From Myxococcota bacterium (lineage in GTDB: Bacteria > Myxococcota_A > UBA9160 > PR03): a stretch of 14,634 nt of DNA. Every line of letters starts with the position of its first letter. The stretch's first letter is position 1. This document shows, piece after piece, positions 1 to 14,535 of this stretch. Both the position numbers and the translations under genes were made by a program. The stretch lies in assembly GCA_041611735.1 (NCBI GenBank), contig JBFIML010000066.1:1-14634 (forward strand), in the 5' to 3' direction. The notes below the pieces were generated by a model. It did no database searches and was not told the DNA's origin. It worked only from the letters and a program-made list of their open reading frames with translations.

Positions 1-614
1 TTCTCGAGCATCAGGCGCCCGAGGACCGTGGCGCACCAGGGCGTCTCGGGGGCGGGCTTGAGCACCAGCGTGTTGCCCGCCGCCAGCGCCGGTCCGAGCT
101 TGCACAGGTTCAGGTAGATGGGGAAGTTCCAGGCGGTGATGGCGCCCACCACGCCCACCGCCTCGCGGCGCAGGATGCGCCGCTGCGGCTGCCCGAGGAA
201 GCGGATCGCCGCCATCTTCTCCTCGTAGGGGTAGCTCCCGGCCAGCTCCGCCCAGTAGGGCATCTGCTCCACGTAGGCGTCGAGCTGGGCCGAGTAGGTG
301 AGCAGCACCGGGGAGCCCGCCTCCGCCACCACCAGGCTGCGCAGCTCCTCGCGCGCCTCGACCAGGGCCGCGGCGAGCTGCTCCAGGCAGCGGCGCCGGA
401 AGGCCGCATCCCGCGCCCAGGGCGTCGTGTCGAAGGCGCGCCGGGCCGCCGCGATAGCCGCCTCCAGGTCGGCCCGGGTCCCGTCGGCGCACACGCCGAG
501 CACCTCCTCGGTGGCCGGGTTCACGGTCTCGAAGCAGGCCCCGCTGCTGGCCTCCACCAGCCGACCGTCGATCAGGTTGCGCGGCTCGCCGCGCGGTGCC
601 AGCAGCTCTGTCAT
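1..614 (-). CDS. aldA: Aldehyde dehydrogenase, N-terminal ~204 codons, running off the left edge; similar to M. tuberculosis AldA/Rv0768
   Basis: Not in the ORF track; translated by hand from ATG at 614 (GGGGG SD upstream): MTELLAPRGEPRNLIDGRLVEASSGACFETVNPATEEVLG...AAIAAARRAFD...RREAVGVVGAITAWNFP...KLGPALAAGNTLVLKPAPETP. These are the classic ALDH motifs. Confidence 0.93.
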   Translation of the reverse strand, partial: MTELLAPRGEPRNLIDGRLVEASSGACFETVNPATEEVLGVCADGTRADLEAAIAAARRAFDTTPWARDAAFRRRCLEQLAAALVEAREELRSLVVAEAGSPVLLTYSAQLDAYVEQMPYWAELAGSYPYEEKMAAIRFLGQPQRRILRREAVGVVGAITAWNFPIYLNLCKLGPALAAGNTLVLKPAPETPWCATVLGRLMLE

Positions 615-636: not shown

Positions 637-1386
637 TCAGGGCCGCAGCACCTGCCCGCCGTCCACGTTCAGGATCTGGCCCGTCACCCAGCTCGACTCG
701 TCCGAGAGCAGGAAGATGCACGCCCCCAGCAGGTCCTCGGGGCGCCCCTGCCGCGCCAACGGCATGCCGGCCAGGATCTGCTCGAGGATGGGCTTGGGCA
801 CGATGCGCCGCGTGGCGGCCGTGTCCGTCGGGCCCGGCGCGATGGCGTTCACGCGGATCTTGTGGGGCCCGAGCTCGCGCGCCAGGGCGTGCGTCAACCC
901 GTTCAGGCCGAGCTTCGCCACGCCATAGAAGCCCACCCCCATCCAGGCGGCGGTGGACGACTGGTTCACCACCGAGCCGCCGCCCCGGGCCTTCATGGAC
1001 TCCCAGCAGGCGCGCGTGCAGAGCAGCGCGCCGTGCAGGTTCACGTCCATGAAGCGCTTGTAGTAGTCCCAGTCCACGCCGAGCAGCGGCGCCAGGCGCA
1101 TGTCGTGGTAGATGGCGGCGTTGTTCACCAGGCCGTCGATGCCGCCGTAGGCCCGCACGGCCGCCTCGGCCAGGGCGCGGGTGGATTCGGGCGAGGCCAC
1201 GTCCACCTCCACGAAGGTCGCCTGGCCGCCGGCCGCCCGGATGGCGTCGGCCACCCGCTGGCCCGCTTCCTTCTGGATGTCGGCCACCACCACCCGCGCG
1301 CCTTCGGCGGCGACGCCCCGGGCGTAGGCCTCGCCGATCCCCTGGCCGGCGCCGGTCACGACCACCACCTTGTCCGCGAGCCGCAT
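637..1386 (-). CDS. Classical SDR oxidoreductase, Rv0769-like
   Basis: TGAGQGIG, NNAA and YGVAK (YxxxK) motifs. Segments DYYKRFMDVN, GGSVVNQSSTAAW and NAIAPGPTDT closely match the remembered Rv0769. GGAGG SD. Confidence 0.93.
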   Translation of the reverse strand: MRLADKVVVVTGAGQGIGEAYARGVAAEGARVVVADIQKEAGQRVADAIRAAGGQATFVEVDVASPESTRALAEAAVRAYGGIDGLVNNAAIYHDMRLAPLLGVDWDYYKRFMDVNLHGALLCTRACWESMKARGGGSVVNQSSTAAWMGVGFYGVAKLGLNGLTHALARELGPHKIRVNAIAPGPTDTAATRRIVPKPILEQILAGMPLARQGRPEDLLGACIFLLSDESSWVTGQILNVDGGQVLRP

Positions 1387-1407: not shown

Positions 1408-2061
1408 CTAGGCGACCGGACCCTCGGGCGTCCGGGTGAGCTCGCCGACCAGGGTCTCCCGCAGCAGGTCCAGCTCGCCGGCGGGAAGCCGCGCGTCTCC
1501 GCCCTGGAGGATGCAGGTCGCGGCCAGGCCCGAGAGCACCGAGAGCGTGTAGTGTGCCAGGACGCGCCGGCGCCGGCGCCCGAGGCGCGCGTCGGCGAAC
1601 AGCCGCGCGAAGATCCCCTCCCAGGCCTCGAACAGGCGCGCCTGGAGCGAGGGAGCCTGCTGGCCCTCCTCCCGCGGCAGGTGACCCAGCAGGATCTCGA
1701 AGGTGGAGCGGTAGTGGGGGCTCGCGAAGTGCTCCCAGGCGCGCTCGACGAACCGGGCAGCGCGCTTCTCCAGGGAAGGCTCGTCCCGGGGGATGCTCTC
1801 GAGCCGCGCCGCGAAGCGCGCGAAGCTGTCCTCGAGCACCGCCACCAGGATGCCGTCCTTGCCGCCGAAGTGGTGCTGCACGGCGCCCCAGGTGACGCCG
1901 GCCCGCTGGGCGATCTCGCTGGCCGTGGTGCGCGGGAAGCCCACGTCCGCGATGCTCGCCACCGCGGCGCCGATGAGGCGGGCCCGCGTGGCGGCGGTGC
2001 GCTCGGCCTGGCTGCGCCGCCCGCGGGCGCGGACGGGCAGGGAGCGGCGAATCGGCTTCAT
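1408..2061 (-). CDS. TetR/AcrR family transcriptional regulator
   Basis: N-terminal HTH: RSQAERTAATRARLIGAAV...GFPRTTASEIAQRAGVTWGAVQHHFGGKDGIL. Transcribed divergently from the P450 operon. Confidence 0.93.
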   Translation of the reverse strand: MKPIRRSLPVRARGRRSQAERTAATRARLIGAAVASIADVGFPRTTASEIAQRAGVTWGAVQHHFGGKDGILVAVLEDSFARFAARLESIPRDEPSLEKRAARFVERAWEHFASPHYRSTFEILLGHLPREEGQQAPSLQARLFEAWEGIFARLFADARLGRRRRRVLAHYTLSVLSGLAATCILQGGDARLPAGELDLLRETLVGELTRTPEGPVA

Positions 2062-2153: not shown

Positions 2154-3332
2154 CTGGTCGAGTACGACCCGTACGCCTACCGGACCCACGAGGACCCCTA
2201 CCCGGTCTACCGGGAGCTGCGGGAGAAGGCGCCCGTCTACCGCAACGACGCCCTGGGCTTCTGGGCGCTCTCCCGGCACGCGGACGTGCTCGCGGCGTTC
2301 AAGGACTGGCAGCGCTTCTCCAGTGCGCAGGGGGTTTCCCTGGAGCCCCAGGCGGTGCACCCGCGCGCCGACGCGGTGATGTCGATCCTGGCCATGGACC
2401 CGCCGCGCCACACCCGCATGCGCGCCCTCGTCTCGCGCGCCTTCACGCCGCGGCGCGTGGCGGGCCTCGAGCCCGGCATCCGCGAGCTCGCCATCCACTA
2501 CCTGGAAGGCCTGCGCCCCCGCGGCGCCTGCGACTTCATCCAGGACTTCGCCGCCCGGCTCCCCATGGACGTGATCAGCGAGATGCTGGGTGTCCCCGCG
2601 GCGGACCGGGACGGGCTGCGTCGCCAGGCGGACCTGGTGGTGCACCGCGAGGAAGGCGTGGCCGGCGTCCCACCCGCCGGCCTCGCGGCGGCGGCGGGCA
2701 TGATCCAGTACTTCGCCGGGCTGCTGGCCCAGCGCCGGCGCACGCCGCGCGACGATCTCCTGGGCGCGCTCCTCGCCGCCGAGCTCGAGGGCGACCGCCT
2801 GAGCGACCGCGAGGTGATCGGCTTCCTGTTCCTGATGATCATCGCGGGCAACGAGACCACCACCAAGCTGCTGGGCAACGCGCTCTACTGGCTCGGGCGC
2901 CACCCGGGCGAGCGCGACAAGCTGCGCGCCGACCCGACCCTCATCCCTCGCTGGGTGGAGGAGACGCTGCGCTACGACAACTCGACCCAGGCCCTGGCCC
3001 GCAGCGTGACCCGCGACCTCGAGCTGCACGGTGAGAAGCTCGCGGCCGGCGACCGGGTCCTGCTGCTGCTCGGCTCCGCCAACCGCGACGAGCGCGTCTT
3101 CCCGCGGGCGGACGCCTACGACATCCTGCGCGACACCAGCGCCTCGCTCTCCTTCGGCCACGGCACGCACTTCTGCCTGGGCGCCGCCCTGGCGCGCCTC
3201 GAGGCGCGCGTGGCCCTGGAGGAGGTGCAGCGCCGCCTGCCCGACTGGGAGGTGGACGCCAGCCGTCTCGTGCGCGTCCACTCCATCAACGTGCGTGGCT
3301 TCGCCAGCCTCCCGATCGGGTTCCGGTCGTGA
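2154..3332 (+). CDS. cyp123: Cytochrome P450, CYP123-like (Rv0766c-like); probable CTG start, ~392 aa
   Basis: I-helix AGNETT, EETLR (ExxR) and heme motif FGHGTHFCLG. The reading frame extends upstream of the ORF-track start (2286) as VEYDPYAYRTHEDPYPVYRELREKAPVYRN...FWALSRHADV, matching the remembered CYP123 N-terminus. SD GGAGG at 2141-2145 precedes CTG at 2154. Confidence 0.9.
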   Translation: MVEYDPYAYRTHEDPYPVYRELREKAPVYRNDALGFWALSRHADVLAAFKDWQRFSSAQGVSLEPQAVHPRADAVMSILAMDPPRHTRMRALVSRAFTPRRVAGLEPGIRELAIHYLEGLRPRGACDFIQDFAARLPMDVISEMLGVPAADRDGLRRQADLVVHREEGVAGVPPAGLAAAAGMIQYFAGLLAQRRRTPRDDLLGALLAAELEGDRLSDREVIGFLFLMIIAGNETTTKLLGNALYWLGRHPGERDKLRADPTLIPRWVEETLRYDNSTQALARSVTRDLELHGEKLAAGDRVLLLLGSANRDERVFPRADAYDILRDTSASLSFGHGTHFCLGAALARLEARVALEEVQRRLPDWEVDASRLVRVHSINVRGFASLPIGFRS

Positions 3333-4102
3333 GCACCGGGGCCCCGGCGCGGGTCGCCGCCGTGACCGGCGCCTCCTCCGGCATCGGCGCCGCCACCGCC
3401 GTGGCCCTCGGGCGCCTGGGCTGGCGGGTGGCGCTCGGCGCCCGGCGCAGCGAGCGGCTGGCGGAGGTGGCGCGCCGGGTGGAGGCGGCGGGCGGGAGCG
3501 CCCTGGCCGCCGCCCTCGACGTGACGGAGCCCGACTCCATCGACGCCTTCTTCGCCGCCGCCGAGGCGGCCTTCGGCGCCGCCGACGTCGTGGTGAGCAA
3601 CGCCGGGGTGTGCGTCCCGGGCCTGCTGCACGAGGTCGGGGAGGAGGATCTCGCCATCGAGCTGCGCACCAACCTGCTGGGTCCGGCGCTGGTGGTGCGG
3701 CGCGCGCTGCCCGCGATGCTCGCGCGCGGAAGCGGCGACCTGGTCTTCGTCTCGTCCCAGAACGCGGTGGCCCCGCGGCCCTTCCAGGCCGGCTACTCCG
3801 CTGCCAAGGCGGGCGTCGAGTCGCTGGCGCGGGTGCTGGCCATGGAGCTCGAGGGGACCGGCGTGCGCGCCACCATCGTGCGGCCCGGCCCCACGGCCAG
3901 CGAGTTCGGGCGCGGCTGGAAGCCGGAGACGATCCGCCGCGTGCTGGCGGCCTGGAAGCACTGGGGCCTGCAACGGCACCTGCGCTGGCTGCCCCCCGAG
4001 AGCGTCGCCAGTGCGGTGGTGGCGGCGGTTACGGCGCCCCCGGGCACGCATCTGGACCTGCTGCAGGTGATGCCCGAAGGCCCGTCGCCGGAGGCATCGT
4101 GA
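3329..4102 (+). CDS. SDR oxidoreductase, Rv0765c-like
   Basis: TGASSGIG, SNAG and YSAAK motifs. GTG start overlaps the P450 stop (GTGA). Syntenic position between cyp123 and cyp51 as in mycobacteria. Confidence 0.9.
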   Translation: MSTGAPARVAAVTGASSGIGAATAVALGRLGWRVALGARRSERLAEVARRVEAAGGSALAAALDVTEPDSIDAFFAAAEAAFGAADVVVSNAGVCVPGLLHEVGEEDLAIELRTNLLGPALVVRRALPAMLARGSGDLVFVSSQNAVAPRPFQAGYSAAKAGVESLARVLAMELEGTGVRATIVRPGPTASEFGRGWKPETIRRVLAAWKHWGLQRHLRWLPPESVASAVVAAVTAPPGTHLDLLQVMPEGPSPEAS

Positions 4103-5466
4103 CGGCCCCGGCTCGGGGCTCGCGCGGGCGCCCGCCGCCCCGCGTCTCGGGCGCCGTGCCTTGGCTCGGTCACCTGCTCGAGCTGCGCCGCCAGCCCCTA
4201 GAGCTCCTGCAGCGCGTGCGCGCCGAGTGCGGCGAGGTCGGCGAGTTTCGCCTGGCGGGCCGGCCGGTGGTGCTCTTCACGGGCCCCGAGGCCAACGAGG
4301 CCTTCTTCCGCGCCCCGGAGGAGCAGCTCGACCAGGCCGCCGCCTATCCCTTCATGACGCCCATCTTCGGCGAGGGGGTGGTCTTCGACGCGAACCCGGA
4401 GCAGCGCCGCCAGGCCTTGCGCAACCGCTCGCTGCGCGACCAGTTCATGCGCGGCCACGCGGAGGTGATCGCCGGCGAGACGGAGCGCATGCTGGCCGGC
4501 TGGGGCGCCGCTGGGGAGATCGACCTGCTCGACTTCTTCGCGGAGCTCACCATCTACACCTCGAGCGCGTGCCTGCTCGGCCGCGAGTTCCGCGAGGAAC
4601 TCACCCCGGAGTTCGCGGTCGCCTACCACGACCTCGAGAAGGGCACCGACGCCTTCGCCTACGTGAACCCCTATCTGCCGCTGCCCTCCTTCCGCAAGCG
4701 CGACCGGGCCCGGCGCCGCCTGGTCGAGCTCATCACCGAGATCATGGAGCGGCGCGAGCGGGAGGGGCGCGAGACCCAGGACCTGCTCCACGTGCTCACG
4801 CGGCTGCGCCGGGCCGACGGGAGCCCTCGCTACGACGCCGACCACATCACCGGCATGTTCATCGCCATGATGTTCGCGGGCCACCACACCACCTCGGGAA
4901 CCGCCGCCTGGACGCTGCTGGAGCTGCTGCGGCACCCGGACGTCGGCAAGCCGGTGGTGGAGGAGCTCGACCGCCTGCACGCCGCCGGCACTCCGGTGAG
5001 CTACCAGGCCCTGCGCGAGATGCCGGCCCTGGAGAGCGCCATCAAGGAGACCCTGCGGCTGCACCCGCCGCTGATCCTGCTGATGCGCAAGGTGATGAGC
5101 GACTTCCACTACAAGGACTGGCGGATCGCCGCCGGCAAGCTGGTGGCCGCCTCGCCGGCGGTCTCGAACCGGCTGCCGGAGTGCTTCCCGGACCCCGAGC
5201 GTTTCGACCCCGCGCGCTACGGGCCCGGCCGCGAGGAGGACCGCCAGAGCTTCGCGTGGATCCCCTTCGGCGCGGGGCGGCATCGCTGCGTGGGCGCCGC
5301 CTTCGCCATGATGCAGCTCAAGGCGATCTTCAGCATCCTGCTGCGGCGCTTCGAGTTCGAGCTGGCGCAGTCGCCCGGGAGCTACCGGAACGACCACTCG
5401 AAGATGGTGGTGCAGCTGCGGCAGCCGTGCCGGGTGCGCCATCGCCAACGGGAGGCGGCGCCGTGA
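4099..5466 (+). CDS. cyp51: Sterol 14-alpha-demethylase CYP51 (CYP51B-type), ~455 aa
   Basis: Signature segments AYPFMTPIFGEGVVFDA, EIDLLDFFAELTIYTSSACL, MMFAGHHT, ETLRLHPPL, WIPFGAGRHRCVG and YRNDHSKMVVQL are near-identical to the remembered M. tuberculosis CYP51B1. GTG start at 4099 overlaps the SDR stop; GGAGG SD at 4090-4094. Confidence 0.96.
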   Translation: MTAPARGSRGRPPPRVSGAVPWLGHLLELRRQPLELLQRVRAECGEVGEFRLAGRPVVLFTGPEANEAFFRAPEEQLDQAAAYPFMTPIFGEGVVFDANPEQRRQALRNRSLRDQFMRGHAEVIAGETERMLAGWGAAGEIDLLDFFAELTIYTSSACLLGREFREELTPEFAVAYHDLEKGTDAFAYVNPYLPLPSFRKRDRARRRLVELITEIMERREREGRETQDLLHVLTRLRRADGSPRYDADHITGMFIAMMFAGHHTTSGTAAWTLLELLRHPDVGKPVVEELDRLHAAGTPVSYQALREMPALESAIKETLRLHPPLILLMRKVMSDFHYKDWRIAAGKLVAASPAVSNRLPECFPDPERFDPARYGPGREEDRQSFAWIPFGAGRHRCVGAAFAMMQLKAIFSILLRRFEFELAQSPGSYRNDHSKMVVQLRQPCRVRHRQREAAP

Positions 5467-5660
5467 GGGTGCGTGTGGACCGGGACCTCTGCCAGGGGCA
5501 CGGGGTGTGCGTCAGCGAGGCGCCCGAGGTCTTCGCCCTGGACGACGCGCTCGGCCCGGTCCGGCTGCTCCAGGACGAGCCGCCCGAGGCCCAGCGCGCC
5601 CCGGTGGAGCAGGCGGTGCGCTACTGCCCGACCCACGCCCTCGCCCTCGAGGACGACTGA
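5463..5660 (+). CDS. [3Fe-4S] ferredoxin, Rv0763c-like, 65 aa
   Basis: MRVRVDRDLCQGHGVC...YCPTHAL carries the CxxHxxC...CP motif of P450-associated ferredoxins. GTG overlaps the cyp51 stop; GGAGG SD at 5451-5455. Confidence 0.93.
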   Translation: MRVRVDRDLCQGHGVCVSEAPEVFALDDALGPVRLLQDEPPEAQRAPVEQAVRYCPTHALALEDD

Positions 5661-5683
5661 GCCCGCCCAGGAGGAGATCCCGC

Positions 5684-6211
5684 ATGCCTGCCTTCCCCCG
5701 CCCGGAGCTCGAGGAGATGGTGCAGCGCTGGCTCCAGGCCAACCACCGCGCGGAGGCGCAGGGCGACTGGGCCACCCACCTCGGCCCCTTCTACACCGAG
5801 GACGCCGTCTATACCTGGAACAACGGCCCGAAGTGGGATTTCGCGGCGCACGGCCGCCAACAGATCTGCGACTGGGCGCTGGGCACCGAGATGCAGGGGC
5901 TCGAAGGCTGGCGCTACGTCTACGACCACGTGCTGATCGACGAGCGCCAGGGCGAGGTGGTGGGCTTCTGGCGCCAGATCGCGCCGGTCAAGCGGCCCGA
6001 CGGCTCGCCCTGGGAGGTGGCGGGCGTGGGCGGGTCCTGGTTCCGCTACGCCGGCGACTGGCGCTGGAGCTGGCAGCGCGACTTCTTCGACCACGCCAAT
6101 GCTGCGGCGGTCTTCCTGGAGCTGGCCCGCCAGGGCGCGCTTGCCGGGGCCATGCAGGAGCGCATGCGGAAGGGCTCCAAGATGCCCGGCTGGGTGCGAC
6201 GCGAGGGCTGA
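5684..6211 (+). CDS. SnoaL/NTF2-like fold protein, Rv0762c-like, 175 aa
   Basis: PRPELEEMVQRWLQANHRAE...FYTEDAVYTWN...ALGTEMQGLEGWRY...IDERQGEVVGFW...GGSWFRYAG...WQRDFFD matches the remembered Rv0762c. AGGAGGAG SD before ATG 5684. Confidence 0.9.
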   Translation: MPAFPRPELEEMVQRWLQANHRAEAQGDWATHLGPFYTEDAVYTWNNGPKWDFAAHGRQQICDWALGTEMQGLEGWRYVYDHVLIDERQGEVVGFWRQIAPVKRPDGSPWEVAGVGGSWFRYAGDWRWSWQRDFFDHANAAAVFLELARQGALAGAMQERMRKGSKMPGWVRREG

Positions 6212-7041
6212 TGGCCAGCGAGGCGCTTCCGGTGGCTCGGGCCCGCGGCGGGCGCTGGTTCTCGGCCAATCCGAGCAAGGCCTGGGGCGAGAAGTTCTTC
6301 CTGCTCTACACGCCGGTCTGGGTGACGGGCATGGCGCTGCTCATGCGGTCCGGGGCCAGCGGACGCTGGGGCGACCTCGCCCTGAACGGCGCCATCGGCG
6401 CGCTCTGGGCGCCGCTGCTCCTCATCCCCGCCTGGCTCCGGGACGAGCGCTCCCTCGGGCGCCCCTGGTACCGGACCTACTGGTTCAAGTTCAACGTCTG
6501 GATCGGCATCTTCGCCGCCATCGGCACCTACTTCCTGACCGAGTACTTTTTCGACGTGCTGGGGATGGTCTACCACTACCCGCAGCTGCGCTGGAGCTTC
6601 GACTCGACGCTGCTCGGCTCCGGCGACCAGCGCGTGCCCCTCATCATGTACGGCTCGGCCCACTACTACTTCGTCACCTACCACACCGCCGCCGTGGTGG
6701 GGATGCGTCGTCTGCGCACCTCGCGCCTGCCCGCCCACCCGCTGACGACGGTCCTCAGCGTCGTGCTCCTGGCCTACGGCTTCGCCTGGGCCGAGACCTT
6801 CTTCATGACCGATGCCTCCATTGCCGAGCAGTTCACCTACCGGGACCTGCCGCGGATGCTGCGCTGGGGCTCGCTCTTCTACGCCTGCTACTTCTTCGTG
6901 AGTTTCCCCATGGTGTATCGCCTCGACGAGGAGCCGGGCGACGACTGGTCCCTGGGACGCACCGCCCGTGACGCCCTGGCCGCCGGCATGGGGGTCTTCC
7001 TCCTGCTCGACCTGGTGACCCGGGCGCTGGGGACCCTCTGA
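6211..7041 (+). CDS. Cycloeucalenol cycloisomerase (cyclopropylsterol isomerase, plant CPI1) homolog; multi-pass membrane protein, 276 aa
   Basis: End-to-end motif match to remembered plant CPI1: NPSKAWGEKFFLLYTPVW (plant NPSKRWGELFFLFYTPFW), YWFKFNVWIGIF..IGTYFLTEYFFDVLG (YWVKANLWIIIF..VGNYFWTHYFFKVLG), LFYACYFFVSFPMVYRLDE (LFYAIYFIVSFPMFFRMDE), and DALAAGM...LDL. ATG overlaps the upstream stop (TGATG at 6209-6213). Confidence 0.88.
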   Translation: MASEALPVARARGGRWFSANPSKAWGEKFFLLYTPVWVTGMALLMRSGASGRWGDLALNGAIGALWAPLLLIPAWLRDERSLGRPWYRTYWFKFNVWIGIFAAIGTYFLTEYFFDVLGMVYHYPQLRWSFDSTLLGSGDQRVPLIMYGSAHYYFVTYHTAAVVGMRRLRTSRLPAHPLTTVLSVVLLAYGFAWAETFFMTDASIAEQFTYRDLPRMLRWGSLFYACYFFVSFPMVYRLDEEPGDDWSLGRTARDALAAGMGVFLLLDLVTRALGTL

Positions 7042-7043
7042 GA

Positions 7044-7907
7044 ATGGCGCGCGCCACGGCGACCCGGGTGGGCTTCGTGGGGCTCGGCAACATCGGCCTG
7101 CCCATGGCCGAGCGGCTGCTCACCGCCCGCTTCGAGCTCACGGTCCACGACGTGGACCCGGAGCCCGTCCGCGTGCTCGCGGCGGCCGGGGCCCGCCGGG
7201 CGGGCTCCGCGCGGGAGCTGGCGGCCCAGGCCGAGGTGATCGGCCTGTGCGTGCGCGACGACGCCCAGGTGCGGGAGGTGTCCCAGGCGCTCCTAGCCGG
7301 CGCGGAGCCGGACACGCTGCTGGCCATCCACAGCACGATCCGGCCGGCCACCGTGCACGAGGTGGCGCGCGCGGCGGCCCGCCGGGGCGTGACGGTAGTG
7401 GACGCGCCCGTCACGGGCGGCGCCGTCGGCGCCCGCAGCGGACGCCTGTGCGTCATGGTCGGGGGCGAGCCCGAGGCGGTGGAGCGCTGCCTGCCCGTCT
7501 TCGAGGCCTTCGCCGAGAAGGTGGTGCGCACGGGGCCTCTCGGGAGTGGCGCCGCCACCAAGCTGTGCAACAACCTGATGACCTACCTGGGCTTCCTGGC
7601 GGCCTGGGAGGCGGAGCGGCTCGCCGTGGCCAGCGGCCTCTCCCGCCAGGCCCTCGACGAGGTCGGGCGGCACAACGGGAACCTGAGCCAGCAGAAGCTG
7701 GCCTTCCTGGGCCTGCACCGCTCCCCGGTGGACCGCAGCGACCCGGGCTTCCGCGCCGCGCTGCAGCGCTTCGTCGAGCTGGCGGAGAAGGACCTGACGG
7801 TGACCCTGGACTTCGCCCGGGAGCTGGGCCTGGAGCTGCCCGGCGCGGCCCTGTGCCGCGAAATCGTGGCGCGCGTCTACGGCCTCGAGGACCCGGCGCG
7901 CGATTGA
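7044..7907 (+). CDS. NAD(P)-dependent beta-hydroxyacid dehydrogenase (3-hydroxyisobutyrate DH/6PGDH-like family), Rv0770-like
   Basis: GFVGLGNIG dinucleotide-binding motif, DAPVTGG substrate motif and GSGAATKLCNN catalytic-Lys motif. Confidence 0.9.
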   Translation: MARATATRVGFVGLGNIGLPMAERLLTARFELTVHDVDPEPVRVLAAAGARRAGSARELAAQAEVIGLCVRDDAQVREVSQALLAGAEPDTLLAIHSTIRPATVHEVARAAARRGVTVVDAPVTGGAVGARSGRLCVMVGGEPEAVERCLPVFEAFAEKVVRTGPLGSGAATKLCNNLMTYLGFLAAWEAERLAVASGLSRQALDEVGRHNGNLSQQKLAFLGLHRSPVDRSDPGFRAALQRFVELAEKDLTVTLDFARELGLELPGAALCREIVARVYGLEDPARD

Positions 7908-7926: not shown

Positions 7927-8292
7927 ATGGCGAACTCCGACGACAAGCGCAGCCAGGGTCGGGCCCGCTTCGAGCAGGTGATGGGCTTCCCGGCCCCGGA
8001 ACGGGACGGCCCCTTCCTGGACATGACCCTCGATCACCTGTTCGCAGAGCTGTGGAGCCGGGAGGGGCTCTCCACGCGGGAGCGCCGCCTGATCACGCTC
8101 ACCGTGCTCGCCTGCCTGGGGCACGAGCCGACCCTGCGCCTGCATCTCGGGGCCGCCATGCGCGAGGAGCTCAGCGACGCGGAGATCGACGAGGTCATGC
8201 TCCACATCGCCCACTACGCGGGCTGGCCCGTGGGCGCCATCGGCTTCGGTGTGGCGCGCCAGCTCCGGGCCGAGCGCGACCGCAAGGGTTAG
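7927..8292 (+). CDS. Carboxymuconolactone decarboxylase (CMD/PcaC-like) family protein, Rv0771-like
   Basis: HLFAELWSREGLSTRERRLITL...EIDEVMLHIAHYAGWP pattern, with no AhpD-type CxxC. GAGGAG SD. Confidence 0.88.
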   Translation: MANSDDKRSQGRARFEQVMGFPAPERDGPFLDMTLDHLFAELWSREGLSTRERRLITLTVLACLGHEPTLRLHLGAAMREELSDAEIDEVMLHIAHYAGWPVGAIGFGVARQLRAERDRKG

Positions 8293-8336: not shown

Positions 8337-8912
8337 CTAGGCGTAGTCCGGCTGGTTGCCGGGTTTCCACTTGATGTTGCAGCCCGTGCTGGGCCGCTGG
8401 TCCGACGCGACGGGCTTCCCGGCCAGCACCGCGTCCACGGCCGCGCGCAGGTCGGCGCCCGTCACCGGCCGCCCGTTGCCCGGGCGGCTGTCGTCGAACT
8501 GGCCCCGGTAGACCAGCCGGCGCTCGGCGTCGAAGAGGTAGAATTCCGGCGTGCAGGCCGCCCGGTAGGCCTTGGCCACCCCCTGGCTCTCGTCGAATAG
8601 ATAGGGGAAGACGTAGCCCGCCCGCTCGATCTCCTCGGCCATGCGCTCCGGCGCATCGTCGGGATGGGTGGTGACGTCGTTGGCGTTGATGGCCACCAGG
8701 GCGAGCCCCCGCTCCGCGTACTGCCTGGCGAACTGGGCCAGGCCGGCCCGGATGTGCTTCACGAACGGGCAGTGGTTGCACAGGAAGGCCACCACCAGCG
8801 CCGGCGCCTTCTCGAAGTCCTCCAGGGCGATCGTGCGTCCGTGGGGATCCGGGAGCCGGAAGGCGGGCGCCCGGGTCCCGAGCGGCAGCATCGTCGAGGG
8901 GGTCACGGCCAT
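8337..8912 (-). CDS. Thioredoxin-fold AhpC/TSA (redoxin) family protein, 191 aa
   Basis: MAVTPSTMLPLGTRAPAFRLPD...FLCNHCPFV...AACTPEFYLFD...GCNIKWK. The start is placed at ATG 8912, which has a GGAGG SD, not at the ORF-track start 9053. Confidence 0.92.
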   Translation of the reverse strand: MAVTPSTMLPLGTRAPAFRLPDPHGRTIALEDFEKAPALVVAFLCNHCPFVKHIRAGLAQFARQYAERGLALVAINANDVTTHPDDAPERMAEEIERAGYVFPYLFDESQGVAKAYRAACTPEFYLFDAERRLVYRGQFDDSRPGNGRPVTGADLRAAVDAVLAGKPVASDQRPSTGCNIKWKPGNQPDYA

Positions 8913-9087
8913 GGCGGGTCCTCCCGGGAGCGCGGGTCTGCGGAGAGTACAGGCGCGGGCTCGCTGACGGAAGTGAACCAAGCCGTCGAGCGCCTGGCTC
9001 GGCCTGGCGGTGCTCACGCGCCGCTCGACCCGTTCGGCCTGGGGCCCCCGCATGGCGCCGAACCCACTCGAGCGTGGCGAGCTGGGC

Positions 9088-10386
9088 TCACAGCTCTGCG
9101 CGCGCCTGCCGGTGCATCCACGCCAGTATCGGGCGCACCCCCAACCCGAGCAGCGGCGGCGGCGGGAGCCAGGAAGGTCGTGGGAGGGACTGGACGTGGC
9201 GGAGCAGCTCGGAGTCGGCGCCCACGGCCAGGTCCGCGAGCAGCATCCCCGACGCTGCGCCGAGCGCCATCCCCACGCCGTTGCAGACCGCCGCGCCGAA
9301 GATGTTCGAGGCCAGGCGCCCGAAGAAAGGGGCCTCGTTCAACGAGATCGCCACGACACCCGCCCACGTGTACTCGAGATCGACACCCGCAAGCTCGGGG
9401 AAGCGGACCCGCAGCGAGTGCCGGTGGGCCGCCCGGACCGCCTCGATCTGTCGCTCCGAGGTGCGCCCGCCCGGGGCGTAGGAGGCGGAGTTGCGGATCA
9501 GGAGGCGCTGATCAGGCGTCCGGCGCAGGGTCGTTCCAACCGGGATCTCGGGCACGAGCCCCCACTCGCGCTCACCACCGAGGGCGCTCTGCTCGGCCTG
9601 CGTGAGCATGCGAGTCAGGCTCGCGAACACCCGGAGCGGGAACATCCGCTGGCGCAGAAAGCCCAGCGCCGGCGAGAAGGCGTTGGTGGTGAGCAGTAGG
9701 TTCGCCGCCTCGATGGATCCCTCCGCGCACTCGAGCCCCAACATCGCGCCCGCCTGGATGGCACGGACCGGAGACTCCTCCAGCAGTACGACGTTGGCAG
9801 GAAGCGCCCCGGCGAGGCCCCGCACCAGCGCCGCCGGCTGCACCAGGACGCCCCCCGGCAACCTCGCGCCGGCGCGGTAGTACGAGGTTCCCGTGATCGC
9901 CTCGAGCTTGCTCGCGTCCAGCTCCTCGTAGGGCTCGCCGAGGGCGTCGAGCTGGCGCAGGAAGCGCTCGACGGCGCGGGTGCCCGCGTCTCCTGCCGCG
10001 CCGTGCAGACGCCCGCCCTCCCGCCATGCGCATTCGATCCGATGGGACCGAACCCGTTGGCGCAGGCTCTCGATCCCGGCTCGCGCCAGCTGGATGCGGC
10101 GGCGCTGCTTCTCGGGTGCGAGACGGCGGTCGTAGTGCCCGAGGTCGGTCAGGAACCCCGAGTTCCGGCCGGAGGCGCCCAAGCCGACCCGCTGCGCCTC
10201 CACCAGCAGGATGCGCGTCTCGGGCAGGAGCTCCGCCAGGCGCCGTGCGGCTGAGAGCCCCGTGATTCCCGCGCCGAGCACCACCCAGTCCGCCCGCTCC
10301 CGACCGCGAAGCCGTCGTGCGGGCGCAGGCACCGGAAGCATCGCGTACCAGCCACACCGGGAATCGTCGGCGGGGAACACTTCCAA
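9088..10386 (-). CDS. FAD-dependent oxidoreductase, DAO/PuuB-like (gamma-glutamylputrescine oxidase-like) family
   Basis: VVLGAGITG dinucleotide fold, GASGRNSG, QPAALVRGLA and CNGVGM motifs. Start is uncertain (TTG 10386 or GTG 10380). Confidence 0.85.
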   Translation of the reverse strand: MEVFPADDSRCGWYAMLPVPAPARRLRGRERADWVVLGAGITGLSAARRLAELLPETRILLVEAQRVGLGASGRNSGFLTDLGHYDRRLAPEKQRRRIQLARAGIESLRQRVRSHRIECAWREGGRLHGAAGDAGTRAVERFLRQLDALGEPYEELDASKLEAITGTSYYRAGARLPGGVLVQPAALVRGLAGALPANVVLLEESPVRAIQAGAMLGLECAEGSIEAANLLLTTNAFSPALGFLRQRMFPLRVFASLTRMLTQAEQSALGGEREWGLVPEIPVGTTLRRTPDQRLLIRNSASYAPGGRTSERQIEAVRAAHRHSLRVRFPELAGVDLEYTWAGVVAISLNEAPFFGRLASNIFGAAVCNGVGMALGAASGMLLADLAVGADSELLRHVQSLPRPSWLPPPPLLGLGVRPILAWMHRQARAEL

Positions 10387-10466
10387 CAGGGTAGCCCACG
10401 GGTTGGCGTCCTACGCTCGGACAGCGGCGCGAAGCACCCCGCTTCCGCTGCCGAACCGAGCCACGG

Positions 10467-11150
10467 CTAGATCCAGGCCAACGCTCGAGCGAGGATCTCT
10501 GTGGCCCCGTTCTCCGCGCAGGCTCCGTGCGCGATCACCAGACGCTCCGGCCTCCAGGCGAGGACCCGCGCCCGGGCCGTGCGGGCGGGGCCCCGGCGCA
10601 AGAAGCTGGTCCGCCATTCCCGCGGCGTACTGCCGCGCTCGCCCACCAGCCCGTCGAGGCGCATCAACATCCCTCTCACGCCCTGCGCCTGCGCCGCGTC
10701 ATGGCGCTGCACGAGGTCGCAGACGATGGCTGTGCGCGACGGGCGATGGAAGAAGACAACCTCCGTCATCGCGATCGAGCCGCGGAAGAGGGTCTGATCG
10801 ATGTCTGACGCCCAGACGGAATCGGCCTGGTCGCCGAGCTCCGCATCAAAGTGCAAGTCCCGCCGTCTCCTGGCGAGCCCGGGTGGCGCATGGAGCCGCG
10901 CCTCCGGCCAGTGCTGGATCCATTCCCTCAGGAAGAGATGGTGGATCTTGTTGGGGGAGACGATGTGGCGAACGGGCCCGATCGACTCCACCGCCCGCTG
11001 GAGCTCGAGGCTGAGCGCGATCGGCGACCAAACCCAAGCGCTGCCGTCCGCCAACCGCACGATCGCCATGCGGGTCGGATACGGGAAGCCGAAAAAGGAG
11101 ACCACGGGGCCGTCGGCCACGTACAAGGATGGCCCGAACTCCTCGAGCAT
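10467..11150 (-). CDS. DUF4336 family protein (metallo-beta-lactamase-like fold)
   Basis: FPYPTRMAIVRLADGS..VWSP, VRHIVSPNKIHHLF, EVVFFHRPSRT.I.CDL and VIAHG motifs are typical of DUF4336. Confidence 0.85.
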   Translation of the reverse strand: MLEEFGPSLYVADGPVVSFFGFPYPTRMAIVRLADGSAWVWSPIALSLELQRAVESIGPVRHIVSPNKIHHLFLREWIQHWPEARLHAPPGLARRRRDLHFDAELGDQADSVWASDIDQTLFRGSIAMTEVVFFHRPSRTAIVCDLVQRHDAAQAQGVRGMLMRLDGLVGERGSTPREWRTSFLRRGPARTARARVLAWRPERLVIAHGACAENGATEILARALAWI

Positions 11151-11310
11151 GATGGCAAGCTACCTGCGCATGGGCGGTGCATCCAGCGCAGCGCACCGCC
11201 CGGTCCAATCGATGCGTGGTAAGTTTGGCGGCGGGCGCCCCGGCTCGAGCGCTCCCCGTCAGCGCGGTGTGCGGGAGCCGGGCGCCGAGAAGCAGAAGGA
11301 GACGACGGCC

Positions 11311-12168
11311 ATGGCCAAGGTCTTGATCACAGGAACCAGCAAGGGAATCGGCCACGACGCCACGCTGATCCTGGCACGCGCGGGACACGAGGTGGTCGCC
11401 ACCATGCGGAACCCGGGCGCCAGCGACCTCGAGAAGATCGCCACAGAAGCGAAGCTCCCGGTGATGGTCCTTCCCATGGACGTAGACGACGATGCGTCGG
11501 TGGCGGAGGTGTTCAGGCAGGTTGGCGACTCGCTCGATGCACTCGTCAACAACGCCGGCATCTTCAGCGTCAACGCCGTCGAAGACGAGAGCCTCGACCA
11601 GTTCCGACGCGTGATGGAGACGAACTACTTCGGCGCCGTGCGCTGCGTAAAGCACGTGCTCCCGGCGATGCGGAGACGCGGCTCGGGCTGCATCATCAAC
11701 GTTACGTCGATCGCCGGGCGTGTCGCCTTCTTCGCGAGCAGCGCCTACAGCGCCTCCAAGTTCGCACTCGAGAGCTTCACGGAGTCCTTGGCCCAGGAAG
11801 TGAAGGGCTACGGAATCAAGGTCGCCCTGGTGGAGCCCGGCATCATCGACACCCCGATGGCGACCACGAATCTGCCCCAATACGACAGCAGCACGGTCTA
11901 TCCGCACGGACGCCGGCTCCACGCCTTCTTCAGCAATCCCGAGAGGGGAGAGGCGCCTCCCACAGTCGTCGCAGACATGATCCGCCACGTCATCGAGGGC
12001 GACGATCCGCGGCTGCGCTTTCCCGTTGGTCCCGATGCGCTGTCGTTCCTGGGCTGGCGCTTTGCACTGAGCGACGAAGACTGGGTCGGCCTCGGTGGCT
12101 TGAAGCGCGACGCGGACTACTTCCAGCGGGTGTTCTTGGATACGGGAGTCGATCTACGTTCGGCATGA
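11311..12168 (+). CDS. Classical SDR oxidoreductase (17-beta-HSD-like subgroup pattern), 285 aa
   Basis: VLITGTSKGIG, ATMRNP, VNNAG, ETNYFG, YSASKFALE and VEPG motifs. AAGGAG SD before ATG 11311; the ORF-track extension from 10801 is a shadow of DUF4336. Confidence 0.9.
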   Translation: MAKVLITGTSKGIGHDATLILARAGHEVVATMRNPGASDLEKIATEAKLPVMVLPMDVDDDASVAEVFRQVGDSLDALVNNAGIFSVNAVEDESLDQFRRVMETNYFGAVRCVKHVLPAMRRRGSGCIINVTSIAGRVAFFASSAYSASKFALESFTESLAQEVKGYGIKVALVEPGIIDTPMATTNLPQYDSSTVYPHGRRLHAFFSNPERGEAPPTVVADMIRHVIEGDDPRLRFPVGPDALSFLGWRFALSDEDWVGLGGLKRDADYFQRVFLDTGVDLRSA

Positions 12169-12362
12169 CCTCTGGAGCGCGAACGTGAACCATTTCGCCG
12201 CTGGCGTATCCTGCAAGAGCCGCGGGTGTCAGCTGCAAGCCGCAGAGCGCCTCAACCTGGACCCGTTGCCGCGGTGGATGGGTTCCCTTCTTGTAGCGGC
12301 ATGGTACCGGGGGCACCGCTGCCCAGGCGCCGCGGCCTGGCCCGCCACCAGGGAGGGCGCCC

Positions 12363-12776
12363 ATGTCGGCTGACTCGCGACGCGAGGACCTCGGCCGCAA
12401 GCATCAGTTCCACGGGCTACAGCCCGTCCTTCCAGTTTGGGAAGTTGCAGCGAGCGCTCAGTATTTCCATGAGGTGCTTGGCTTCGAGATCGACTTCCTG
12501 GAAGGCGATCCTCCCATTCACGGTCGCGTCACGAAGGGCGACGGAAGCTGGGGCCATCCGATCTACATCCATCTCTCGAAGGCGGCGCCCGAGGAAGTAC
12601 GCCCGAGCGGAGAGCTCCGCATCCACGTCGGACACGACCTCGACGGTCTATTCGAGGCGTATCGCCGCCTCGGGGTCGAGGTGGTTTTCACGCCCGTCTC
12701 GCAGGCCTGGGGGCTTCGCGAGTTTGCGGTGCGGGAGATCAACGGGCATGTGCTTCGATTCTGCGCCGAGGCCTAG
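12363..12776 (+). CDS. VOC (glyoxalase/bleomycin resistance) family protein
   Basis: PVLPV.EVAASAQYFHEVLGF...DLDGLFEAY...QAWGLREFAVREINGHVLRF pattern. GGGAGGG SD. Confidence 0.85.
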   Translation: MSADSRREDLGRKHQFHGLQPVLPVWEVAASAQYFHEVLGFEIDFLEGDPPIHGRVTKGDGSWGHPIYIHLSKAAPEEVRPSGELRIHVGHDLDGLFEAYRRLGVEVVFTPVSQAWGLREFAVREINGHVLRFCAEA

Positions 12777-12879
12777 GGGGTTGGTCTTCTCATGGAAGGC
12801 GCGGCGGCGGACGGCGGCCTCGGTGGCGCAGTGGGCGGTGGTACGCTGACAGAAGAGGCCTCCCCCGCCGAGGTGGGAG

Positions 12880-13359
12880 ATGGAACCGCTTCACCTGTTC
12901 GTTGCCCAGTTCCTCTGGTTCCTGCTCGTATGGTCAGCGATCGCCTGCTTGGTGGTCTGGCCGTGGTCTCTCGGGCTCTCCTCGGAGGCGCGGCTTTCGC
13001 TCTGGCTGGCCCCGCAGATGTTCCGTGTCCTGGGTCTCGGGCTGCTGGTCCCGAATCTCTCTCCGGGAATCTCGCGTGAGTTTGCGGTGGCCACGGCGGT
13101 CGGCGACTCGCTCACCGCCACCCTTGCTCTACTGGCCTTCCTCGGGCTGCGTCGGGGCTGGCGGTTCGCGCGGCCCCTGACCTGGGCCTGCATGTTCGTC
13201 GGCATCACCGATCTGCTGGTGGCCTTCCCGCACGCCGCGCGTACGGGGGCCATCGATCATCTCGCCGCGCAGTGGTACGTCCCGGTGTTCGCTGGCCCGG
13301 TCATGGTGGTGTCCCACATCGCCTGCCTCGTGGCCTTGCTTCGCGATCCGCGGGACTAG
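12880..13359 (+). CDS. Hypothetical integral membrane protein (~5 hydrophobic segments)
   Basis: Hydrophobic segments with embedded polar motifs (PQMFR, GD, G.TD, H). Purine-rich SD-like sequence GAGGTGGGAG immediately upstream. Confidence 0.75.
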   Translation: MEPLHLFVAQFLWFLLVWSAIACLVVWPWSLGLSSEARLSLWLAPQMFRVLGLGLLVPNLSPGISREFAVATAVGDSLTATLALLAFLGLRRGWRFARPLTWACMFVGITDLLVAFPHAARTGAIDHLAAQWYVPVFAGPVMVVSHIACLVALLRDPRD

Positions 13360-13617
13360 CGCAGGGGCTCGTCCCCTTCGAGCTGGGCGCGGACCTCGTG
13401 CTGGTGGCCCTCATGGGGAAAGCGAGGGCCCGGAGCAGGGCGTGCTGGCGCGGAACCCTCGCTCGCACGAAAGCCAGGGCCTCTTCAAGTGCGGACCGAC
13501 GAGCCGCTGCCCTTCCGGCTCGTGCCAGCCGAGCGCCGGCACGAGTCGAAGCGCTGGTGTCCTGTCAGGGCACTAGGGGGTTCGCCGTGCCTCCGCGGGT
13601 AGCGCGGCTCGGGGTCC

Positions 13618-14463
13618 TCAAGACACCCGGCGTCTGCGGCCGAGGGCCGCCAGGCCGACCAGGCCCGCGCCAAGCAGCGCCAAAGTGCGCGGCTCCGGAA
13701 CGACCGTCCCGATCGGCGGGTCGAGGCGCGGGCCGACTCCTCCCTCGGTCGACACGGACCAGCCTTCGAAGCCGTCGCTGTTGTCCCAGTTCTTGGCGCT
13801 CTGGCCGGTGCCCTCGTTCGGCTTCTCGCCGACCTTCGAGTAGAGATAGACGTAGGGATGGGTGCCGGCGCCCACGAAGAGCGCGTCGGGGACGTAGAGC
13901 AGCATGTCGAGCTTGCCCGAGCCGCCCCCGTTCAGGTCCATGTCCAGCAGGACGCGGCTGTCGCCGTCCGGGCCCACGTCCAGATCGTAGACGAGGTTCG
14001 CGTTGCCGCCGTAGGTCGGGTGGCCGAGCAGGTTCGGAGCGTTGCCCAGGTAGAGCTGCACCTCGTCCAGGGAGAGGTAGGCGGCCGCGCCACCGCTCTC
14101 GTTGATGTCGAGGGCGAACTCCCGATACAGGACCCCCGAGATCACGATCTGGGGCACCGCGTCGAGCAGCAGGGAGTGCGTGAACGAGCCTCCGACCTCG
14201 TCGTACTGGAAGGGGGCGCCGTCGGTGTTGTAGCCCTGGGTGCTCGGCGTGCTCGCCGCCTGGTAGCGCACGAACTCGTCCACGGCTCCGGAGCCGGCGC
14301 CGCTCGAGGTGAACTGGTAGAAGCGGGCCCCGTTCAGCGCGCCGCTCGAGAGCGCGGTGGTCAGGTCCAGCTCCGTGATCGCGGCAGCGGGCGTGGGGAT
14401 CGAGAGCGCCGCCAGGAGCGCAACCCCTGCGAGCGGGCCAGAGCGTGCCGTCGTGCAATGCAT
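13618..14463 (-). CDS. PEP-CTERM sorting-domain surface protein, 281 aa
   Basis: N-terminal signal peptide (LAGVALLAALSIPTPAAA). C-terminal VPEP, then a TM helix (TLALLGAGLVGLAALG), then RRRR. AAGGAG SD before ATG 14463. Confidence 0.92.
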   Translation of the reverse strand: MHCTTARSGPLAGVALLAALSIPTPAAAITELDLTTALSSGALNGARFYQFTSSGAGSGAVDEFVRYQAASTPSTQGYNTDGAPFQYDEVGGSFTHSLLLDAVPQIVISGVLYREFALDINESGGAAAYLSLDEVQLYLGNAPNLLGHPTYGGNANLVYDLDVGPDGDSRVLLDMDLNGGGSGKLDMLLYVPDALFVGAGTHPYVYLYSKVGEKPNEGTGQSAKNWDNSDGFEGWSVSTEGGVGPRLDPPIGTVVPEPRTLALLGAGLVGLAALGRRRRVS

Positions 14464-14535
14464 CGAATCGAGCTCCTTTCTTCGCACCGCCCACATCCCC
14501 GAGGGAACCCAGCGGCTACAGCTGGCTGATCATGA

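Follow-up and report, generated by a model that had tools for sequence, protein, structure and literature searches.

The 14,634-base contig JBFIML010000066.1, analysed here over its whole length and called the window, comes from an uncultured marine bacterium and contains an operon in which a gene of the cycloeucalenol cycloisomerase family (CPI; CPI1 in plants) stands shortly after the genes for sterol 14alpha-demethylase (CYP51) and a ferredoxin. Judged from sequence similarity far beyond chance, its product is a true CPI1-family homologue, and the linkage of CPI to CYP51 is general across bacteria. In plants, CPI1 opens the 9beta,19-cyclopropane ring of cycloeucalenol to give obtusifoliol, the direct substrate of CYP51. 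We put at about even the chance that the operon serves the inducible processing of imported cyclopropyl sterols, with CPI as the entry enzyme. What is new is the finding that CPI belongs, as an optional gene, to a mycobacterial-type cyp51 cluster in genomes where no oxidosqualene cyclase (OSC) was found, together with a three-step reading of CPI, CYP51 and a putative bacterial 8,14-sterol reductase (8,14-Bsr), as well as a conserved operator-like site.

The CPI reading frame (276 codons, zero internal stops) is tightly joined to its neighbours. Its ATG (6211-6213) overlaps the upstream TGA (6209-6211) by one base, giving TGATG, and its own TGA (7039-7041) is followed by a 2-nt gap (7042-7043) and then by the ATG (7044) with which the adjoining gene starts. 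Both junctions read exactly as reported in the original prediction, which was made from the letters of the window; its remark that codon usage is GC-rich like that of the neighbours is also accurate, third-position GC across the gene being 0.94-0.97. A contig of an independent study (run X5, record 15) spans 5691-7380 with zero differences, so both junctions exist outside this assembly and are no assembly artefact. Overlap and gap agree with the claim that CPI is a native, translationally coupled operon member.

The protein has the size and the polytopic membrane character of the family: its 276 amino acids (aa) lie within the range of about 270-300 aa, and a 19-residue hydropathy scan gives four or more segments of strong hydrophobicity (56-74, 96-114, 181-199 and 255-273). 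At E<=1e-3 it matches 745 proteins in a collection clustered at 90%, many of them named cycloeucalenol cycloisomerase by JGI, and 580 representative clusters. BLASTP aligns residues 16-267 with a Selaginella protein at 86/261 identities (33%, 120 bits, E 4e-37), and phmmer against the representatives recovers the same protein (E 7.9e-23). Among 20 representatives looked up, the Selaginella and Apiosordaria proteins carry the UniRef name cycloeucalenol cycloisomerase; others come from a chytrid, Syssomonas, a marine protist transcriptome and Polyangiaceae. When the Syssomonas protein was used as a seed it drew only 12 proteins, none plant-named. Searches of the window protein against Pfam, NCBIfam and PDB sequences gave zero matches. 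Across an alignment of 105 rows, with members from plants, fungi and protists, Y121 never varies and a further 16 positions reach at least 90% conservation; the window protein retains all 17, including Y107, Y112, Y121, Y157, R166, E195 and Y224. The full-length plant homology and the hydrophobic segments thus sustain the original identification of a membrane protein of the CPI1 family. Two trees (FastTree, 111 rows; IQ-TREE quick, 88 rows) place it in a bacterial clade, with a separate clade of plant, chytrid and protist members at 98-100% SH-like support, so that the search and the tree first proposed for this gene return plant, protist and Polyangiaceae relatives and a bacterial position.

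Two side observations concern the family at large. Ascomycete members (Gaeumannomyces, Apiosordaria) group with a Polyangiaceae cluster (rows P0135, P0172, P0205 and P0168 versus the P0141 cluster) and not with the plant, chytrid and protist clade, a hint of transfer between bacteria and fungi; to our knowledge, such ascomycetes should have no need of CPI. A fused form also exists, a protein of 1056 aa (P0258) with its CPI-family domain at residues 7-226.

A scan of species-representative genomes yielded at least 226 loci with a CPI relative. We surveyed the best 80 together with one locus from a relative of the source organism. NCBI labels, which are rough for metagenome-assembled genomes (MAGs), assign the 80 to Myxococcota, Binatia, gamma- and alphaproteobacteria and other groups. 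Counting a locus as linked when a CYP51 with 40% identity or more lies no further than 6 kb upstream of CPI, we find the linkage in 67 of these 81 loci. In a further five, CYP51 is cut off by the end of the contig or lies 8 kb from CPI, and another five, with less than 1.9 kb of upstream flank, are not evaluable. Against full linkage stand four loci in which a flank of 10 kb contains no CYP51; three of those four genomes carry CYP51 elsewhere. Among 80 metagenome contigs with CPI, CYP51 occurs in 43 of the 46 having at least 2.5 kb upstream. The early worry that the linkage might be limited to this assembly is thereby refuted. In 32 of the 81 loci a Bsr-like gene is found no more than 1 kb from CPI, and the full mycobacterial-type set together with CPI is found in L005, L006, L008, L010, L013 and several metagenome contigs. 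Among the loci seen, only this genome has two further genes of the set, for a 3-hydroxyisobutyrate-dehydrogenase-like (HIBADH-like) oxidoreductase and a carboxymuconolactone-decarboxylase-family (CMD) protein, after CPI on the same strand; elsewhere CPI is last in the operon.

The identity of the upstream partners bears directly on what CPI might do. The window CYP51 matches M. tuberculosis CYP51 (1e9x) at 606 bits (E 2.8e-181, residues 14-452 on 7-449) and M. capsulatus CYP51 at 501 bits, and among the first 56 distinct PDB sequences listed nearly all are CYP51 or sterol 14alpha-demethylase, 9wat being named only 'Cytochrome P450'. The motifs AYPFMTPIFGEGVVFDA and FAGHHTTSGT are present and align with the corresponding M. 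tuberculosis stretches; we take the signatures of the enzyme to be YxxxxPxFGxGVxxD in the B' helix and AGHHTS/T in the I-helix. The cyp51 GTG overlaps the stop codon of the preceding short-chain dehydrogenase/reductase (SDR) gene as GTGA, with GGAGG five bases upstream.

One gene (5684-6211) separates the ferredoxin from CPI; it begins 24 nt past the ferredoxin stop and encodes a protein of 175 aa. Published work has identified an NTF2-family protein, encoded together with cyp51 and ferredoxin, as a bacterial 8,14-sterol reductase, which converts the delta-8,14 product of CYP51 to a delta-8(14) sterol, and the homologues of M. tuberculosis and a Sandaracinus are active as well (Lee, Giner and Welander, J Bacteriol 2026, PMC13277303). 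At the published numbers of the M. capsulatus enzyme the window protein has Y37, Y43, Y78, Y80, D133 and D136, six of six. It has no Pfam match at E<=0.01 and chance-level matches only to PDB sequences; homologues at 62-70% identity carry SnoaL_2/SnoaL_4 and are named 'nuclear transport factor 2 family protein' by NCBI. The protein is likely an 8,14-Bsr, the comparison being one of published residue numbers and gene position. The original prediction rightly set CPI beside cyp51 and ferredoxin but overlooked what the intervening gene is likely to encode.

On the reading that we favour, the substrate would be a plant, algal or myxobacterial cyclopropyl sterol taken from outside. Homology and linkage suggest that CPI would open the 9beta,19-cyclopropane ring of a cycloeucalenol-type sterol to give a delta-8 14alpha-methyl sterol of the obtusifoliol type. 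CYP51 and the ferredoxin would then remove the 14alpha-methyl group to leave the delta-8,14 diene, a step shown for the M. tuberculosis orthologue, and 8,14-Bsr would turn the diene into a delta-8(14) sterol, as shown for the homologues of M. capsulatus, M. tuberculosis and Sandaracinus. This sequence fits the reported in vitro preference of M. tuberculosis CYP51 for obtusifoliol, the CPI product (PMC7947880). The remaining genes (a second P450, here P450b, two SDRs, aldehyde dehydrogenase, HIBADH-like and CMD) might oxidise or remove further methyls or work on the side chain, which is speculation. CPI itself may be an optional extra by which the cluster accepts cyclopropyl sterols in addition to lanosterol-type ones.

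Whether CPI is optional was judged from relatives, for which we used 40 genomes of the same family and order, 16 of them of the same family. CPI is present in one of the 40 and in none of the 16, and a strong Bsr homologue (E<=5e-56) is present in 24 of the 40. Of the relatives' loci, 17 were inspected; 13 show the CYP51-ferredoxin-Bsr order, most with P450, SDR, aldehyde dehydrogenase, HIBADH, CMD and TetR genes, and 12 of these 13 lack CPI, the exception being L104 (G024). In the longer loci the cluster stops at Bsr and unrelated genes follow. CPI thus looks accessory, being absent from the same cluster in most relatives, and since that cluster is otherwise identical, it evidently works without CPI. 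The original prediction was right to make CPI an operon member, but it missed this absence. The CYP51 tree groups the window with 11 CPI-less relatives and the CPI-bearing L013 in a clade of 13 rows (98%), a placement that further supports the contig's binning. In the CPI tree, the clade with the other extended clusters has the window and L013 branching off early, one after the other (97%, 82%). Repeated loss of CPI from an ancestral cluster would fit these trees at least as well as two gains.

Other features of these loci are recorded here in their own right. A Phe at the position of M. tuberculosis F78 was considered as a mark of CPI-linked CYP51 and rejected, as it is confined to the CYP51 clade of the window whether CPI is present or not. 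Signs of cluster decay in relatives are visible in L102 (G030:C74), where a CYP51 remnant at 8706-8915 (15% of the protein) adjoins an intact Bsr gene, and at G015:C4:532851-533367, where the Bsr gene is in two pieces. The loci L094 (G022:C1) and L099 (G020:C24), from two relatives, have a Bsr-like gene without CYP51 within about 8 kb on either side.

Does the organism make sterols or take them? The observation that the window holds neither squalene epoxidase nor OSC stands and extends to the rest of the genome, which is 95% complete. Pfam domains of OSC and squalene-hopene cyclase (SHC) gave one weak match (23-31 bits), to a 319-aa open reading frame without the catalytic motif, and there were zero matches to squalene epoxidase and zero to ERG4/24 (C14) reductase. 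The marker searches work, because the control genome G044 yields OSC, an epoxidase 3 kb away and ERG4/24 genes. Among 79 other CPI-bearing genomes, a low-scoring cyclase (138-172 bits) was found in 18, a high-scoring one (>=260 bits) in 9, and none in 52. The low-scoring class is read as OSC-type because 18/18 read WPVSDCTAE, and the high-scoring class as SHC-type on the strength of DTDDTA in L084, the single member inspected; we take these to be OSC-type and SHC motifs, respectively. OSC-type cyclases occur in none of the nine other genomes with the extended cluster and CPI. Among the 40 relatives, 21 have a high-scoring cyclase, and a second, weak match in G023 (155 bits) alone could be OSC-type. 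Cultured Zavarzinia marina and a Halioglobus MAG carry CYP51, ferredoxin, Bsr and CPI with no cyclase found, and have KshA_C matches of 284 and 195 bits; their gene content fits that of steroid degraders.

The KshA_C match of the window genome itself was rejected as evidence of steroid catabolism or C4 demethylation: it reaches only 78 bits with the SdmA model (cut-off 600), and the genes beside it (acyl-CoA dehydrogenase, amidohydrolase and acetoacetate-decarboxylase-like) are non-diagnostic. SdmA above cut-off was found in 0 of 5 genomes.

Several points weigh against imported cyclopropyl sterols as the substrate. Full-text searches turned up no assay of any bacterial CPI. No sterol uptake system was identified in the window genome, and its sole signal of steroid-ring degradation, among markers that did not include KstD and HsaABCD, is that weak KshA_C match (104 bits). 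A MAG without OSC does not prove that the organism lacks the gene. The otherwise identical cluster lacks CPI in most relatives, and the other 63 CPI-linked CYP51s carry M, L, A, I or V at the M. tuberculosis F78 position. Cultured Myxococcaceae that make cycloartenol lack downstream sterol enzymes, according to a preprint. Finally, all 18 OSC-type cyclases of CPI genomes (L085, L108-L124) read (H)(G/R)WPVSDCTAE, with Val two residues before the catalytic Asp. In eukaryotes CPI1 accompanies a cycloartenol-type OSC, position V453 is treated as lanosterol-type, and the same mismatch has been noted for P. pacifica, the first bacterium reported with CPI1 (Desmond and Gribaldo 2009, PMC2817430). The eukaryotic pattern is not seen here: no such cyclase was found in this genome, and 18/18 elsewhere have Val. 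Bacterial CPI is therefore not clearly tied to endogenous cycloartenol, and both an imported substrate and a different reaction stay alive.

A different reaction would make the protein a sterol-nucleus isomerase of another kind, catalysing for instance a delta-8(14)/delta-8 shift on lanosterol-type sterols after CYP51 and Bsr. Plant CPI and delta-8/delta-7 isomerases have similar carbocation intermediates and shared inhibitors, the CPI gene does lie downstream of cyp51, ferredoxin and Bsr, and the Val-type cyclases described above, with which CPI also co-occurs in P. pacifica (PMC2817430), speak for lanosterol-type substrates. The order of genes in an operon need not mirror the order of reactions, however, and in sequence the protein resembles CPI1 but no known delta-8/delta-7 isomerase, none having been hit in searches of Pfam, NCBIfam and PDB. 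The same OSC motif, moreover, has a His six residues before the Asp that we take to be of the cycloartenol-synthase type, and such cyclases may give mixed products. We regard this explanation as unlikely. The substrate could also be a lipid other than a sterol, for instance a different triterpenoid or a lipid of bacterial membranes, a possibility raised for mycobacteria by Lamb et al. (PMC7947880) and in keeping with the high-scoring, SHC-like cyclases of 21 of the 40 relatives. It is made quite improbable by the action of M. tuberculosis CYP51 and the M. tuberculosis Bsr homologue on sterols (PMC7947880, PMC13277303), by the presence of the cluster in at least 10 relatives without an SHC-type cyclase found and in this genome, where none was found, and by the fact that all characterised members of the three families are sterol enzymes.

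De novo sterol synthesis via cycloartenol, with OSC and epoxidase lying in the unassembled 5% of the genome, would agree with the published view of bacterial CPI1 as biosynthetic (PMC8237579) and with the 18 of 79 CPI genomes that have an OSC-type cyclase, among them G044 with squalene epoxidase and ERG4/24. Here, however, three independent marker families are missing at 95% completeness, the 40 relatives offer only the doubtful G023 match, and genomes with the extended cluster and CPI have no OSC-type cyclase (0/9). An inducible pathway is in keeping with TetR control and with partners that look catabolic (aldehyde dehydrogenase, CMD), and we hold endogenous synthesis to be very improbable.

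Control by a TetR-family regulator was part of the original prediction, and the added evidence favours it: the TetR gene heads the operon, in divergent orientation, and a conserved operator-like palindrome lies alongside. The site, TTACAT-N10-ATGTAA, recurs with at most two mismatches in 15 other loci, and in 13 of these it lies within about 250 bp of the starts of P450b, HIBADH or CMD genes (in L013 also of the aldehyde dehydrogenase gene). The palindrome has 6-nt arms and was found by eye and by pattern search; a repeat finder run over 2040-2300 gave no inverted repeat of 10 nt or more. It is likely the operator of the TetR of the cluster, a candidate site whose conserved placement supports common TetR control.

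How far is this arrangement already known? As in plant CPI1, homology runs over the whole length (33% to the Selaginella member), size is similar, the protein is polytopic and the family-wide residues are kept; unlike plant CPI1, the window protein is bacterial, operon-encoded, from a genome with no cycloartenol synthase found and in a separate clade. With the published CYP51-ferredoxin-8,14-Bsr clusters (PMC13277303) the window shares the three genes, their order and the six pocket residues, and the taxa of that paper (uncultured Myxococcota, gamma- and alphaproteobacteria) are those of the CPI loci; the difference is the CPI gene directly after Bsr. In the portions of that paper and its supplement available to us, CPI, cyclopropyl and cycloisomerase do not occur; its gene-cluster figure 4b may show CPI unlabelled. 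Nor is CPI in these clusters mentioned in the accessible text of Lamb et al. (PMC7947880). The M. tuberculosis locus Rv0762c-Rv0771, as listed in print, comprises a hypothetical protein, ferredoxin, cyp51, an oxidoreductase, cyp123, the regulator-like Rv0767c, aldA, two dehydrogenases and CMD (PMC10470581). The window holds the same gene families (CYP51 alone compared by sequence, the rest at family level), with different gene order and strands. That published list has no CPI, in line with the original prediction, which nevertheless overlooked that the whole unit is a mycobacterial-type cyp51 cluster.

In sterol-making myxobacteria, CPI1 family members are likewise syntenic with other sterol genes (P. 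pacifica, PMC2817430; Hoshino and Gaucher 2021, PMC8237579). There, however, CPI1 is read as part of de novo synthesis with OSC, SQMO and ERG24-27, none of which was found in the window genome. The view that no description of the arrangement was known must accordingly be narrowed: CPI1 synteny and CYP51-ferredoxin-Bsr clusters are both in print, while CPI in a mycobacterial-type cluster was not found in the sources at hand.

For about 25 years there has been no agreed natural role for the CYP51 of bacteria that make no sterols, mycobacteria included. When 8,14-Bsr was discovered, two of the cluster's genes were shown to work one after the other on sterols (2026, PMC13277303). We now see a putative plant-type ring-opening enzyme in the same operon of many marine and soil bacteria, most of them with no OSC found, which points to cycloartenol-derived sterols from plant and algal detritus as the substrate pool. 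The use of CPI1 as a marker of the cycloartenol route in early sterol evolution is affected as well, because CPI1 here travels with a processing cluster and not with a cyclase. It is possible, although we advance the idea only tentatively, that the conserved eleven-gene unit, whose family content is shared with the orphan M. tuberculosis cyp51 regulon, is a 'protosterol-trimming' pathway in which CPI is the switch to 9,19-cyclopropyl sterols. Such a pathway would rid raw sterol precursors of whatever prevents their use or breakdown: CYP51 and Bsr would handle the 14-methyl group, and P450b, the SDRs, aldehyde dehydrogenase and CMD the 4-methyls or the side chain. If this were true, the presence or absence of CPI would report the sterol pool on which a lineage feeds, and the mycobacterial-type cluster would gain its first natural substrate class.

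The features of the window, which is an entire contig of a 4.09-Mb source bin (118 contigs, 72% G+C), were mapped from third-position G+C and family searches (Pfam, NCBIfam).

Table 1. Features of the cyp51-CPI region by position in the window, with palindrome sites found in other loci
Feature	Position	Strand	Evidence and remarks
Aldehyde dehydrogenase, N-terminal part	3..614	-	Cut by contig start; Pfam Aldedh 137 bits; aldA family of M. tuberculosis locus
SDR oxidoreductase SDR_a	637..1386	-	Pfam adh_short_C2 224 bits; NCBIfam NF005853 388 bits (cut-off 303)
TetR-family regulator	1408..2061	-	Pfam TetR_N 45 bits; divergent from operon
AT-rich imperfect palindrome TTACAT-N10-ATGTAA	2087..2108	.	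Between TetR and first P450; candidate TetR operator
Second cytochrome P450, P450b	2154..3332	+	Pfam p450; occupies cyp123 place of M. tuberculosis locus
SDR oxidoreductase SDR_b	3329..4102	+	Pfam adh_short 162 bits; NCBIfam NF005854 264.9 bits (cut-off 260)
CYP51, sterol 14alpha-demethylase	4099..5466	+	606 bits vs M. tuberculosis CYP51
Small single-cluster ferredoxin	5463..5660	+	GTG start 5463 or 5469; Pfam Fer4_15 52 bits, Fer4_13 45 bits
175-aa NTF2-like protein, likely 8,14-Bsr	5684..6211	+	Six published pocket residues; position after cyp51 and ferredoxin
CPI1-family membrane protein, 276 aa	6211..7041	+	Cycloeucalenol cycloisomerase homologue
HIBADH-like NAD(P) oxidoreductase	7044..7907	+	Pfam NAD_binding_2 142 bits, NAD_binding_11 41.5 bits
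CMD-family protein	7927..8292	+	Pfam CMD 59.5 bits; final conserved gene of unit
Palindrome sites elsewhere	L005:3560, L006:3507, L008:3545, L010:3505, L013:6174 and 13587, L096-L098, L100-L103, L105

The operon order is P450, SDR, CYP51, ferredoxin, NTF2 protein, CPI, HIBADH-like and CMD, with the TetR gene divergent. The accompanying genes recur in related clusters: aldehyde dehydrogenase homologues 58-75% identical occur in the same cluster of L005-L013 and of relatives, SDR_a is kept, TetR homologues are 54-61% identical, HIBADH-like homologues are there divergent from P450b, and CMD homologues are present. Downstream of 8292, genes have matches in only one of the 81 loci, apart from weak cross-matches (26-33%) of an SDR at about 11200-12168 to other SDR genes. 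The genes at 8337-14496 encode AhpC/redoxin, a DAO-type FAD oxidoreductase, DUF4336, two unknowns and a PEP-CTERM protein, and G+C falls to 0.64-0.66 around 11000-13000.

P450b probably starts at CTG 2154. Its frame has no ATG, GTG or TTG from the in-frame stop at 2106 to 2286, yet a typical P450 N-terminus is encoded there, and GGAGGGG lies 6-7 nt ahead of the CTG. Alignments with PDB relatives begin at residue 2-4; the top match is a CYP125 ancestor (291 bits), and the nearest entries also include CYP130, a vitamin D hydroxylase and CYP142/124. P450-family matches number 13 in the 4.1-Mb genome, many for one of this size, which suggests an oxidative lifestyle on hydrophobic substrates.

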